Origin: an uncultured Candidatus Micrarchaeota archaeon
GTDB lineage: Archaea > Micrarchaeota > Micrarchaeia > Burarchaeales > Fermentimicrarchaeaceae
DNA: 64,000 nt
Reading direction: 5' to 3'
NCBI GenBank assembly: GCA_963760615.1
Contig: CAVXDX010000008.1
Location: 64,001-128,000, forward strand
Both the position numbers and the translations under genes were made by a program. The notes beneath the pieces were generated by a model. The model searched no databases. It saw only the letters and a program-made list of their open reading frames with translations, and was not told the DNA's origin. Of the stretch, positions 33,440 through 63,837 are shown piece after piece; within the stretch, counting starts at the first letter, position 1, and each line of letters starts with the position of its first letter.

Positions 33440-33555
33440 GCTGAAATTATGGATTTTCTTATTTAAATAGAGCGCGGAAACTGCACAAGCTTTTTCAAGT
33501 TGTTACGTCATTAGATTGCATTAACAGAAGACGCGTGAAAAAAGCTGAAAACATA

Positions 33556-35334
33556 TTAATCTTGCGTGGATGCAACAAAGGTATCTCCGAGGATGCCCCG
33601 TATTTTTCCAAGCAGCTCAATTTCCTTGTCATTAAGGAACTCCCTGTACCTGCTGAGAAGCATCTTGGCATGAGTCCTCGGGACATTCGTGTAAAGAACA
33701 TCTCCCTCATTCACCTGCCTCCCGAAGGTTGGCTCATCCATTGAAATGGCAACCTGCATGCCCTCCTTGGCCTCAGCTATGCTCTCATTTTCGCTCTGGA
33801 TTGCCTTTACCCTTCCCACAGAAACGCCTTTCTCATTTATCAGCTCGTATTCAGATTTTATCCTTCCGGCTTGGATGTCCACCCCGAATATTGCGGGGTG
33901 GGATGTATGGAAGCAGCAGCCCGCCATCACCTTGAGCTTTGCAGGCAGGACAAGTGATGAGAATGCCTGGGTGCGCTCCTGCTCCTTCTCTGCTTCAGCC
34001 CATTTCTTGTAGTTGTCAAGCAATGCATAGATTATACCCTCGCGCATTATTGTAATCCCGGCCCTCCTCGACTCCTCCTCAGCATCCTCAAGAACGTCAA
34101 CATTGAATGAGAGTATCACCCCGTAATACCTGTTCTGGTTTCTTATTCCGGATGCGTCAACCACATCCTTCTTCACAACCGCCCCTATGCCCGCCTTGCT
34201 CACGGGCACCTTCTCATCTTTGAGAAGCTTTATTATTGCTTCCAGGGAGCCCAGGGTATCTGCCTTCAGTATCACTCCCTCGTCACCTTTCTCAATGAGA
34301 ACCTCCTTGATTTCCTTGTCTATTTCCGCAATGAGCTTCTTCTCATCCGCCTTTCCCGCGACGAATATTGGCGAGCCAGCAATTGCATCCTCCAAGCCCG
34401 GTGCTGCTATTTTCACCCCTGCGGCTGCGTGTACCTCATCCACATTGAGGAATTTTTCTCGTGGATCCCTCATCTCGTCAAGCGGCTTTGGCCTTAGAAG
34501 TGCCCTCACCTTAGTAGTCTTCGCACCGTTTACAGTCCCAAAAACTATGGTGTCGCCCCTCTTTATCACTCCGTTGTAGAATATGGCGTCAACAGTCTTG
34601 CCGAGTCCTGTCTCATCCTTCACCTCAAGTATGCTTCCTCTCCCCTCACCTTTCACCTTAAGATGCAGCCTGTCCTTCAGGAACCTCTGGGACAAGCCCG
34701 CTATGAACATGAGCAGCTCATTCACTCCTTCGCCAGTCTTTGCGCTTAGGGGTATTATTGCAATCTGCTTTGTGAAGTCGGATATTCTGTCAAACCTCTC
34801 CGACTGGAAGCCGAGCTCGCTCAACCTGCCCACGAAGTTGTACAGCCTCTTCTCAAGCTCCTGCTGCACCTCTTGGGATTGCATGTTGAATGACTCTAGA
34901 AATGTCAAATCGGGGTGGGAAGCCCATCCTTCAACAAGGTCTATCTTGTTCATTGCGATTACGAAAGGAGTTTTGTAGTCCTTCAGAATCTCAATAGTCT
35001 CAAGAGTCTGCGGCTCGAACCCTTTTGTTATATCCAGCACAAGCACAGCCATGTCTGAGATGCTGCCTCCTCTTTCCCTCAGGTTTGTGAATGCCTCGTG
35101 GCCAGGCGTGTCTATGAAGAGCAGGCCGGGTATCTCCAGCTTGGTCTGCATGAGGCTCATCATTGTGCTGCATGCTTTGGTTATAACCTCTATTGGAACC
35201 TCGCTTGCGCCTATGTGCTGCGTTATGCCTCCTTTCTCTCTCTTTGCAACAGATGTCTTCCTTATCCTATCTAGAAGGGAGGTCTTCCCGTGGTCTACAT
35301 GACCCATCACTACGACGATAGGCTGCCTTATCAT
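33556..35334 (-). CDS. infB: Translation initiation factor aIF5B (IF-2)
   Basis: GHVDHGKTS, GGITQHIGA, DTPGHE, NKID, KADTLGSLEA; ATG 35334. Confidence 0.97.
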   Translation of the reverse strand: MIRQPIVVVMGHVDHGKTSLLDRIRKTSVAKREKGGITQHIGASEVPIEVITKACSTMMSLMQTKLEIPGLLFIDTPGHEAFTNLRERGGSISDMAVLVLDITKGFEPQTLETIEILKDYKTPFVIAMNKIDLVEGWASHPDLTFLESFNMQSQEVQQELEKRLYNFVGRLSELGFQSERFDRISDFTKQIAIIPLSAKTGEGVNELLMFIAGLSQRFLKDRLHLKVKGEGRGSILEVKDETGLGKTVDAIFYNGVIKRGDTIVFGTVNGAKTTKVRALLRPKPLDEMRDPREKFLNVDEVHAAAGVKIAAPGLEDAIAGSPIFVAGKADEKKLIAEIDKEIKEVLIEKGDEGVILKADTLGSLEAIIKLLKDEKVPVSKAGIGAVVKKDVVDASGIRNQNRYYGVILSFNVDVLEDAEEESRRAGITIMREGIIYALLDNYKKWAEAEKEQERTQAFSSLVLPAKLKVMAGCCFHTSHPAIFGVDIQAGRIKSEYELINEKGVSVGRVKAIQSENESIAEAKEGMQVAISMDEPTFGRQVNEGDVLYTNVPRTHAKMLLSRYREFLNDKEIELLGKIRGILGDTFVASTQD

Positions 35335-35476
35335 GTCAAACACCAGAACAAGCCTCAGTCAGGTGAATTCCACATCTTATTATGCTGAGTAAGGTATATA
35401 ACGCTTTTTCTTGCATTTGCAGTTGTGCGATATTTAAATAGGATAAAGACGTAATTACTTGTAAAGGGGTTATGCA

Positions 35477-36076
35477 ATGGAGAGTATTGCTGGCGGGCGT
35501 GATGCATGGGGTATGAAGCCATTTGTGATATCTGATGGAAGGGCGCACTGCGAGGATGAGACGGGGCGTATTGAGCTGGAGCCCATAAAAGGCGATATTG
35601 TAGTCAGCAGAATGTCCAAGGTTGATAGGAGAATAGCCGTTGCGACGCACCTTACGTTAACGGAAGGTGAGAAAGCAGACAATGTAGTAATCAATGTTGA
35701 AGTAGATGGCAGGCAATTCGAAGTAAAACGCATAAAAGTTGAAGTTGACCCGAGAGATATTGTAAGATTCACCGGACCTTTTACCTGCAAGGTACCGGAA
35801 AATGAGCTTGGAGATGGGTTGAAAAAACTTGATGTTACATTGGAAGGGGCTCTTGATGATAGTGGAAAAAGGCTGAAAACGATTTATTTTAAGGAGATTG
35901 TTGTGCTCTACGCTGGTAGATCCAATTTGCAAGTAATACTCAAAGAACCTGCGCTGAAAAAAATGGATATAGATGTAGGGGATTATGAGAAACAGCTTAG
36001 TAAATGCCTTGAGTCTCTCACAAATTTGGAGGAGATGAGGCGCAGTTCTGCGTTCAGAGAAAGGGCAAGAAGCTAG
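35477..36076 (+). CDS. Orphan protein
   Basis: 199-aa ORF behind TTTAAATA...ACGTAATT. Confidence 0.7.
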   Translation: MESIAGGRDAWGMKPFVISDGRAHCEDETGRIELEPIKGDIVVSRMSKVDRRIAVATHLTLTEGEKADNVVINVEVDGRQFEVKRIKVEVDPRDIVRFTGPFTCKVPENELGDGLKKLDVTLEGALDDSGKRLKTIYFKEIVVLYAGRSNLQVILKEPALKKMDIDVGDYEKQLSKCLESLTNLEEMRRSSAFRERARS

Positions 36077-62586: not shown

Positions 62587-62632
62587 CGATATTACTGCCG
62601 AGCATCTTAATAATTGCTTGCTAAGAATCAGA

Positions 62633-63664
62633 CTAAGACTTGCATGAGCATAGCACCGCGTATGTCTTTCTAAGGTTTTCCAGATGCGTAGTCTGTTCTC
62701 TAACTTCCCATTGCTTCTCTGCAAGATCTTCTGATAAATTACTTCCCAACGCTGTGTTGATGCATGACCGCATCTGAATCCTTAGCTTCTCAGCCTCAGC
62801 AACCTTATTTTTAACCTCCGCATCTTTATCGGAAATTGCCTTCTCAATAAATTTCTTAACCTTCTCAAGGTCAATTCCAGCTATGGCAAACGCAATGGCA
62901 TCCGGGTTTGCAGGCGCGTGGTTGGACCAGATGAACAGCAGATTGTCAAAGTGACTTTCAGTGTGTTCCCTAGTGATTCCTGCTAAAAAGCGAGCCTCTT
63001 CCTTTAGGTTGTGATTATTGAGCTGGGAGAGCAGCAGGCTTGGACTTTTTGACTCGCTGAGAACTTTTTTGACTGCTTCCTGCGGTGTTGAACCCTCCTT
63101 TTCAAGAGTTTTGACCCTCAACGCCAGCTCGTATCTTTTTTTGGTGTCGCTGGCATAAGCTTCATCGCCAAATCTCGCCTTTGTGAAGGAATATTTTATG
63201 TTCTGGCTTTCGAGGAAATCAAGCAGCGAAACTAAGTTCTGGTATGCCCCCTGCTTTCTGAGCCTGTCCAGAGCATCCGGTTTGAGGAAGCTTGCCCTGC
63301 TAGAGGTATTTAGTCTGTTGAATGCTCCGTTTACCGAAAGTTTGTAGAAAAGACCGCTCACCAGATGAATTGCTGCAGACCCTCCGGACTCATCGCCAAA
63401 ACCAGTTATTTCAGCGTAAACCCCTTCGCTGAGGGTTACGGCCTTCACTGCCCTGAAGCCAAAAACCCGTACATGAGTATCACCAACGCTGAACTTCGTA
63501 TCAATCTCCCTCGTATTCATCCTACGGAAGTACTCGGAAAGCTTGCTCTGCAGGTCTTTTATTGCATGATGGTGGAATGCGTCCCTTGCAGGCACATCTT
63601 TCGGAGTAGTTTCTTTAACGTCCACTGGGCTCTTAGCAAATTCTGGAATGTGCTTTTGTGGCAT
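62633..63664 (-). CDS. Orphan protein
   Basis: 343-aa ORF with CATAAT-N6-ATG upstream. Confidence 0.75.
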   Translation of the reverse strand: MPQKHIPEFAKSPVDVKETTPKDVPARDAFHHHAIKDLQSKLSEYFRRMNTREIDTKFSVGDTHVRVFGFRAVKAVTLSEGVYAEITGFGDESGGSAAIHLVSGLFYKLSVNGAFNRLNTSSRASFLKPDALDRLRKQGAYQNLVSLLDFLESQNIKYSFTKARFGDEAYASDTKKRYELALRVKTLEKEGSTPQEAVKKVLSESKSPSLLLSQLNNHNLKEEARFLAGITREHTESHFDNLLFIWSNHAPANPDAIAFAIAGIDLEKVKKFIEKAISDKDAEVKNKVAEAEKLRIQMRSCINTALGSNLSEDLAEKQWEVREQTTHLENLRKTYAVLCSCKS

Positions 63665-63837
63665 GTAATAATTATGGCATCTAAGATTAAAATAGGTTTA
63701 CTTGCGCTAAGCTAGTATGTTTTTCGGAAAGTTACCCCTCCCTCAGGTATTTAAATAGGGTAAAGCAAGAAGTCAGCAAAAGATATTTATGCACTACTGT
63801 ATAAAATAGCAATACTCTTTTTAAGAGGATGAGGTGA

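Follow-up and report, generated by a model that had tools for sequence, protein, structure and literature searches.

Architecture of the motif in the window and in the genome

The window considered here is a 64,000-nt stretch (C8:64001-128000) of the genome of an uncultured Candidatus Micrarchaeota archaeon, referred to as G000 (1.136 Mb in 16 contigs), and the subject is a promoter motif in which a TATA box is followed by the hexamer CATAAT, placed six nucleotides before an ATG. A first-pass annotation had cited six such sites before orphan genes, and all six were found on the minus strand, with ATGs at 33439, 40651, 41737, 42884, 45047 and 63664 that each open an open reading frame (ORF) of 287-415 aa. 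The window holds nine CATAAT-N6-ATG matches, as compared with a mean of 0.50 and a maximum of 4 in 100 dinucleotide-preserving shuffles; the other three (7591, 8351 and 10968) lack both a TATA box and an ORF and appear to be chance matches. At 6/6 cited sites a TATA-like octamer lies ~8 nt 5' of the hexamer, at approximately -30 to -23 from the ATG. Scored with a 32-nt weight matrix trained on 13 clear sites, the six are uneven in strength: those at 40651, 41737, 42884 and 45047 reach 36-42 bits and that at 33439 reaches 30 bits, while the 63664 site falls below 14 bits and has the hexamer, the spacing and a weak TATA box as all that it holds in common with the class. The variants that had been noted near 47443, 35477 and 45192 are also real, being a site that has lost its ATG, a CGTAAT form followed by a leader, and a GGCGTAAT form before a GTG, respectively (Table 1). 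The last of these (45150-45181, +) is divergent from the promoter at 45048-45079 (-). The bases that follow the promoter at 47446-47477 resemble the start of another motif gene (C5:14432) minus the A of its ATG, and this 47445 site is a decayed promoter-plus-gene unit.

A genome-wide scan with the same matrix (cut 14 bits) returned 33 sites in G000 and none in two shuffled genomes, and ~25 of the 33 directly abut the start codon of a long ORF or stop no more than 1-2 nt from it, the gene calls and start codons being those of our own simple caller. Conservation is limited to positions -32 to -1, and further upstream the information content is about zero except in sub-groups. From its 5' end, the consensus comprises the TATA octamer TTTAAATA at -30 to -23, four variable bases, an A-run at -18 to -15, the eight-base element GGCATAAT at -14 to -7 (with the hexamer at -12 to -7), an A/T-rich, TTAA-like stretch at -6 to -3, C at -1, and the ATG. 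A purine-rich flank resembling the transcription factor B (TFB) recognition element (BRE) is common to a subset of these promoter-plus-gene units, hereafter cassettes, and to the 5S rRNA promoter. Across the class, C occupies -1 in 88% and A occupies +1 in 94% of sites, the pyrimidine/purine pair of a leaderless initiator, and with the start presumed at the ATG the TATA box is centred near -26.5; the leaderless archaeal geometry that had been proposed for these sites is thus the one that they appear to have.

The average G000 gene carries a Shine-Dalgarno signal. The distance between TATA-like octamers and start codons nevertheless peaks sharply at 29-31 nt, which yields ~80 genes of leaderless type. 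The eight-base element (≤2 mismatches, in the right place) occurs in 19/82 of them, where control positions lead one to expect 1.7%, and its distribution is bimodal. The remaining 63 leaderless-type genes have an A-rich -12 to -8 region, T/A at -6 to -4 and a pyrimidine at -1, a loose proximal element plus initiator as known from other archaea (PMC5316973). Two positions set the class apart from these ordinary leaderless genes, namely G at -14 (100% vs 24%) and A at -18 (94% vs 27%); tRNA promoters carry an AATATA-type element and neither of the two features.

Lineage-restricted genes, inserts and probable cassette turnover

The complete genome of a relative from the same genus (G002, 1,178,830 bp) served as the sole yardstick of what is core, the proteins shared by G000 and G002 having a median identity of 75%. 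A G002 homologue covering at least half the length was found for 9/21 motif genes, as against 49/63 other leaderless genes and 838/1021 of the rest (Fisher p = 0.005 for motif genes vs other leaderless genes and 9e-5 vs all genes); the orphan association drawn in the first-pass annotation is therefore borne out as an enrichment before lineage-restricted genes. Eight of the nine conserved motif genes are so at just 32-46% identity, and the ninth encodes arginyl-tRNA synthetase (88%), whose G002 orthologue keeps the A/T part of the element. The same annotation had seen no motif before housekeeping genes, which holds for nearly all protein genes, the exceptions being the weak copy before the arginyl-tRNA synthetase gene and the hexamer element at the rRNA genes, which lie outside the window and are described below. 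G002 has 15-20 motif genes of its own with the same properties. More broadly, genomes of the genus contain 4-16 copies of GCATAAT-N6-ATG each, those from elsewhere in the order and class contain 0-6, and the reversed control pattern gives 0-2; about half of the distant sites that were inspected have a TATA box in place and no A-run.

The proteins diverge far more than their promoters. No homologue of the 39788-40651 protein was found in the 40 relatives, and a single one of the 62633-63664 protein was found, in G001, at 46% identity; the 44097-45047 protein has three relatives among 5.8 billion clustered proteins, and 1.84 billion proteins include 18 representatives of the 41832-42884 family, in which the HExxH is invariant. 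The G002 homologue of 44097-45047 has kept its promoter despite an identity of 32%. The promoters of more distant homologues were examined in G001, G003 and G006, and for the 41832-42884 family G003 has the full motif and G006 a degenerate form. Between motif-gene homologues with 32-39% protein identity (3-6 pairs) the A-run and hexamer are almost unchanged, whereas promoters of ordinary leaderless orthologues (68% protein identity; few pairs) are 35-60% identical outside the TATA box. Since unconstrained non-coding DNA would have lost its similarity at such protein divergence, the comparison suggests that selection must be acting on the motif promoter even as the proteins diverge.

From 10.6 to 63 kb the window is collinear with G002 624-678 kb, and the motif genes appear as gene-sized differences within a housekeeping backbone (ArgRS, aIF5B, ScpA, Trm5 and MetRS). 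The region 62622-63720 is a clean insert of 1099 bp, made up of 56 bp with the promoter, the gene and a further 11 bp, against 8 bp at the same point in G002; 32104-33543 (1.44 kb, holding gene 32192-33439) faces an unrelated 175 bp; 35413-36125 stands where G002 has 48 bp; and at the 47445 remnant G002 has ~250 bp less DNA. The largest difference is a 7.4-kb accessory island between the genes for ScpA (38091-38807) and Trm5 (46211-47227), which contains four full-motif genes, a second gene for a single-repeat TATA-binding protein (half-TBP) and a YkgJ-like gene (Pfam). The corresponding site measures ~600-660 bp in G002-G005 and 38 bp in G006, and in G002 the half-TBP gene and the 44097-45047 homologue, again a pair, stand in a different backbone context. 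Cassettes also form tandem arrays, at 39788-42916 and at C12:27.9-36 kb. No repeats or target-site duplications were seen at the three insert junctions examined. G000 has three tyrosine recombinase genes, and none of them lies inside or beside the 7.4-kb island. A viral origin of the motif was considered and rejected: of the 117 matches in an exact-pattern scan of IMG/VR, ~105 represent one unrelated conserved phage sequence, and none of the pattern matches has a TATA box at the right place.

What the motif genes encode is mixed. The six window proteins have no family match above cut-off in Pfam, and searches of ten motif proteins against PHROGs, NCBIfam and PADLOC were without usable result. 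Genome-wide, the domains of motif genes include two GNAT domains, two AbrB/MazE-type C-termini, a nucleotidyltransferase and a winged helix-turn-helix (wHTH), and an AbiEii gene also lies behind a motif promoter; such a combination recalls toxin-antitoxin or defence genes, though PADLOC returned nothing for the ten proteins. The 40727-41737 protein has an HTH_24 match below cut-off. The 44097-45047 protein has an HExxH that is invariant in 5 homologues, and its AlphaFold2 (AF2) model (predicted local distance difference test score, pLDDT, 82) has PDB 3cmn as its top match, albeit a weak one (E = 5.6e-3, TM 0.54-0.56); an atlas lead to Zincin_2 (PF10103) scores just 0.89 and there is no Pfam match, yet the lead agrees with the 3cmn match. 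No solved relative was found with the 41832-42884 family profile, and the AF2 model (pLDDT 44) is too poor for use. A hydrophobic segment is found in 2/33 motif proteins, as compared with 33% of the proteome, and the recognisable domains are of cytoplasmic types. The motif proteins are soluble and mixed, and since hydrophobic segments are so rare among them a role at the surface or in host contact is not indicated, contrary to the host-interaction programme that had been suggested for them.

Eight sites of an 18-bp palindrome with the core GTAACCATGGTTAC (six exact and perfect, two with one mismatch) were found in G000, and seven of them lie within ~100 nt of a motif promoter. Three are placed 6 nt 5' of a purine-rich TATA flank, two belonging to motif promoters and one to a leadered promoter, and some of the remaining ones lie 11-54 nt past a stop codon. 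The palindrome is present in 7/9 genomes of the family (1-11 sites each) and in 0/31 outside it; G002 has motif promoters and lacks it. Among homologues of 41832-42884, that of G006 has an exact palindrome 34 nt past the stop and that of G003 a one-base variant soon after the stop. In IMG/VR there were 7 matches, which is about chance level by our rough estimate. The palindrome may act as an operator, a 3'-end hairpin, a centromere-like site or a cassette boundary. A further element of 16 nt, GGAAAGTTACCCCTCC, recurs in two genomes ~8 nt 5' of the TATA box of at least three promoters and may be another upstream control element; shorter related strings lie upstream of the promoters at 40651 and 41737.

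Several neighbouring features deserve mention in their own right. The 62622-63720 insert landed 16 nt upstream of the start codon of the methionyl-tRNA synthetase (MetRS) gene, which now begins ~25 nt after orphan gene 62633-63664 and may be transcribed from the cassette promoter, because it has no TATA box of its own (window 62560-62640); the listed 597-aa MetRS ORF begins too far upstream. A motif promoter of full score (45 bits) at C3:50230-50392 (L001) stands before no more than a 34-codon frame, which contains a palindrome with one mismatch; an AbiEii-type nucleotidyltransferase gene comes next, and the short frame may be a decayed antitoxin partner. The region from ~1700 to 10562 of the window is a probable integrated element: a tyrosine recombinase gene (9177-10382, -) directly adjoins a tRNA-Leu gene (10476-10562, -), the GC fraction between 4 and 8 kb is down to 0.376, and G002 lacks homologues of several ORFs. 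The genes of this region do not use the full motif. The tRNA genes at 17446-17538 (+) and 60803-60893 (-) have odd anticodon loops according to ARAGORN and Rfam tRNA scores of 43 and 57 bits, respectively, and probably contain introns.

Table 1. Coordinates of motif promoters and associated features. Positions without a prefix refer to the window; prefixed positions refer to contigs of G000, or of G002 where so marked.
Feature	Coordinates	Strand	Score or remark
Full motif promoter of orphan gene 39788-40651 (287 aa)	40652-40683	-	41.2 bits
Full motif promoter of gene 40727-41737 (336 aa, weak wHTH match)	41738-41769	-	41.6 bits
Full motif promoter of gene 41832-42884 (350 aa, invariant HExxH)	42885-42916	-	36.5 bits
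Full motif promoter of gene 44097-45047 (316 aa, Zincin_2-like HExxH protein)	45048-45079	-	39.2 bits
Motif promoter, TATA box shifted 2 nt, of gene 32192-33439 (415 aa)	33440-33471	-	30.4 bits
Weak member with poor TATA box before gene 62633-63664 (343 aa)	63665-63696	-	<14 bits
Variant promoter GGCGTAAT before GTG-start gene 45180-45644	45150-45181	+	30.4 bits
Promoter remnant, start codon (ATG) lost, then 52-codon frame	47446-47477	-	30.9 bits
CGTAAT variant before 35477	35433-35461	+	leader ~15 nt with G-run, so not leaderless
Weak copy GGAATAAT before arginyl-tRNA synthetase gene 13064-14938	13032-13063	+	23.1 bits; Pfam identification
Accessory island (7.4 kb)	38844-46221		
Half-TBP gene, next to a motif gene and the 5S gene	C4:102559-102861	-	
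Second half-TBP gene, inside the island	43651-43965	-	
Palindrome	41806-41823		11 nt after stop of gene 41832-42884, ~70 nt upstream of ATG 41737
Palindrome	45084-45101		6 nt upstream of BRE-like flank of promoter 45048-45079
Other palindrome sites in G000	C12:32235, C12:36031, C12:29870, C14:128715, C16:12688, C3:50310		
GGAAAGTTACCCCTCC sites	63726-63741; G002 C1 ~653156-653171, ~677256-677271		
5S rRNA gene of G000	C4:101922-102035; upstream region 102036-102090		
rRNA promoter loci	G002 C1:780268-780500; L251		family pattern TATA, 6 nt, (T/G)G(C/T)ATAAT

rRNA promoters, general factors and competing readings

The hexamer is also found outside the accessory genes. Upstream of the 5S rRNA gene of G000, a purine-rich flank leads to a TATA box, which is separated by 6 nt from GGCATAAT, and 7 nt remain before the gene, so that a (G/T)GCATAAT element sits between the TATA box and the start of the gene. 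G001, G002, G003 and G006, the last of which belongs to another genus than G000, have the element in this setting too, its first base being G or T, and G004 has a one-base variant. The 16S and 23S genes are absent from the G000 assembly and their promoters were read in G002, where the order is TATA, 6 nt and TGCATAAT, and in G006, which has TGTATAAT, with one base changed, ~210 nt 5' of the 16S gene. A scan that ignored what follows the hexamer returned the TATA box plus hexamer before five conserved genes with leaders of 7-29 nt as well. The element is A/T-rich, lies near -10 and would be in general use by the basal machinery. Because rRNA promoters use it as well, the hexamer with its preceding G is, as far as sequence can tell, the consensus proximal element of this lineage. 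The hexamer is not confined to a regulated set, nor is it absent from unrelated promoters such as those of the rRNA genes, of which it and its G are part. A dedicated factor that reads the hexamer, as had been envisaged in the first-pass annotation, is unlikely because the hexamer is common to the rRNA genes and to conserved leadered genes. The possibility that the motif is a generic initiator element, raised at the same time, is realised in part, at rRNA and leadered genes, and the enrichment before lineage-restricted genes still holds. What is left as specific to the class is the gap of 8 nt (rather than 6 nt) that is filled by the A-run, together with the fusion to the start codon.

G000 has one TFB gene and two half-TBP genes. 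Single-repeat TBP is the rule across the class, with frames of ~100-130 aa in most of the 40 relatives and two-repeat frames (~190-205 aa) in three of them only. Extra half-TBP copies occur mainly in this genus, within islands, and the copies found in G002 are almost identical to one another, as well as to the one in the G000 island. The motif is still present where a genome has one half-TBP only. A dependence of the motif on the half-TBP was rejected, single-repeat TBP genes occurring throughout the class, and the proposed co-occurrence of the two is likewise not supported.

Taken together, the motif is best read as a portable, full-consensus leaderless core promoter that travels with fast-turnover accessory gene cassettes, and not as the operator of a dedicated regulon, a reading that is considered likely though well short of certain; the motif then marks gene turnover, not a specially regulated programme. 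Transcription would most likely start at the A of the ATG, directly after the C at -1. The cassette would be read by the general machinery, that is a half-TBP dimer, the single TFB and RNA polymerase, with the DNA opening at the hexamer, because the proximal element is the lineage consensus used by rRNA promoters, and rRNA genes are normally among the most strongly transcribed. The likely outcome would be strong, regulator-independent transcription of an mRNA beginning at its start codon. Attached to single accessory genes, the promoter would be gained, lost and moved with them as promoter-plus-gene units in a conserved backbone, and selection would keep it while the proteins diverge or get replaced. 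Several points weigh against this reading. Both 'leaderless' and 'strong' are inferred. The rRNA promoters have 6 nt, not 8, between TATA box and element and lack the A-run; with G at -14 and A at -18 being specific to the class, part of the motif could still be a binding site. That the best promoter should stand on accessory rather than core protein genes is unexplained, and the analysis relied on a home-made gene caller and on one same-genus genome to set the core.

The candidate binding site is the starting point of the alternative in which the A-run and GGC (-18 to -12), perhaps with the palindrome, form the operator of a dedicated regulator that switches the accessory set, the putative candidates being an island wHTH or AbrB-domain protein or a TBP dimer with the second half-TBP of the island. 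In its favour, G at -14 and A at -18 are near-invariant in the class, at background elsewhere and absent from tRNA promoters, and are kept between homologues of 32-39% identity; 7/8 palindromes have a motif promoter within ~100 nt, and for three the distance to the BRE-like flank is fixed at 6 nt; the palindrome is restricted to one family (7/9 vs 0/31 outside). Motif proteins include DNA-binding domains, and the islands of the genus hold extra half-TBP copies. However, the hexamer itself is common to rRNA promoters, the element is not a dyad and has a fixed place inside the footprint region of the basal machinery, and G002 has ~15-20 motif promoters with no palindrome. The two half-TBPs are near-identical, which makes a different specificity unlikely, genomes with one half-TBP have the motif, and gene functions are heterogeneous. 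Such a regulon is considered unlikely, if the best placed of the alternatives. Also considered unlikely is the most far-reaching proposal, that cassette and palindrome constitute an undescribed gene-cassette system of Micrarchaeota, expressed as a block via a factor that reads the class-specific positions in the gap between TATA box and hexamer. If true, an organism that otherwise has almost no regulatory capacity would possess an archaeal equivalent of the accessory gene pools of integron type, with self-promoted single genes being captured, shuffled and discarded at many chromosomal sites.

The discrete indels formed by promoter-plus-gene units, their tandem arrays (39788-42916 and C12:27.9-36 kb) and the shuffling of island content between genomes could also be explained if the promoter, with or without the palindrome at the 3' end, were a homology or recognition site for gene swapping and its promoter activity secondary. 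The 41832-42884 family keeps both the promoter (G000, G003 and G006) and the palindrome (G000 and G006, with a variant in G003), and three tyrosine recombinase genes are available in a 1.1-Mb genome. The three junctions examined were without target duplications or repeats, however, and no recombinase gene lies inside or beside the island; conservation ends at -32, which is very short for homologous exchange, rRNA promoters carry the element but are not cassettes, and nothing similar was seen in viral contigs. A capture site is accordingly held to be improbable. Lower still is the probability given to common descent, in which the motif genes would have arisen from one or a few ancestors as paralogues that diverge fast, with the promoter copied along. 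Some paralogue sets do exist (32192-33439 with 40727-41737 and three others; C12:27940 with C14:101276), sizes cluster narrowly at 280-350 aa, and an HExxH is found at residues 155-191 in five motif proteins, as compared with 19/1108 in the proteome. Yet most motif proteins are mutually dissimilar, and whatever its origin the promoter must be selected. One hidden superfamily was rejected: all-against-all BLAST connects few motif proteins, the HExxH sites are left unaligned by MAFFT, and no relationship was detected between the two HExxH families, for which hhalign gave a probability of 0.35%.

Significance and relation to known systems

On the reading of the motif as a portable core promoter, the lineage has a sharp promoter-proximal element (PPE) consensus, common to the rRNA genes and to ~2% of protein genes, which supplies a defined sequence for in vitro transcription studies of the unusual half-size TBP of the class. 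The motif is also a simple marker of the fast-turnover part of Micrarchaeota genomes, and the genes that it accompanies, which differ between close relatives, are a likely place for defence, toxin-antitoxin-like and strain-specific functions. A caution of wider bearing is that a shared promoter need not mean a regulon. The link to rRNA promoters and the family-specific 18-bp palindrome beside cassettes are new, and no description of DPANN archaeal promoters was found in the literature that could be searched.

Bacterial extended -10 promoters have the sequence TGnTATAAT at -15 to -7, which is read by sigma-70; archaea are not known to have a sigma factor. The present element lies at an identical position from the presumed start and has nearly the same sequence, TGCATAAT occurring in many sites, and the 16S promoter of G006 (TGTATAAT) is letter for letter a bacterial extended -10 box, although a TATA box and not a -35 box lies upstream. 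The likeness probably arises because A/T-rich DNA has to be opened at the same position in both.

Most integron cassettes have no promoter of their own and depend on one common promoter, attC sites of 57-141 bp and an adjacent integron integrase. The motif cassettes resemble them as unrelated single genes that stand in tandem, vary between close relatives and are in some cases followed by a conserved palindrome, and differ in that each unit has its own promoter, the palindrome measures 18 bp and is not consistently present, and the arrays have no integrase next to them. Neither an integrase of this kind nor ends of attC type were found, the palindrome following some cassettes only and junction repeats being absent. 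In haloarchaea, promoter classes are served by paralogous TBP and TFB proteins. The extra half-TBP (second or third copy) of the motif-richest genus, located in accessory islands, is similar in this respect, whereas here there is one TFB, the TBPs are near-identical and no promoter feature tracks the extra copy.

The closest likeness is to the archaeal core promoter, which primary transcriptomes such as that of Thermococcus onnurineus show to comprise BRE, TATA, a PPE near -10 and an initiator with a pyrimidine at -1 (PMC5316973). The order and spacing of elements appear to agree, with the TATA box centred ~26-27 nt before the presumed start, as do the A/T-rich -10 region, the pyrimidine-purine step at -1/+1 and the ATG start on the presumed leaderless mRNAs. 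The published PPE is an A/T-rich tendency, whereas here it is a near-invariant eight-base consensus shared by ~20-25 promoters and the 5S rRNA promoters, the 16S-23S operon having a close form of it, and the full 32-nt version is concentrated on accessory genes.

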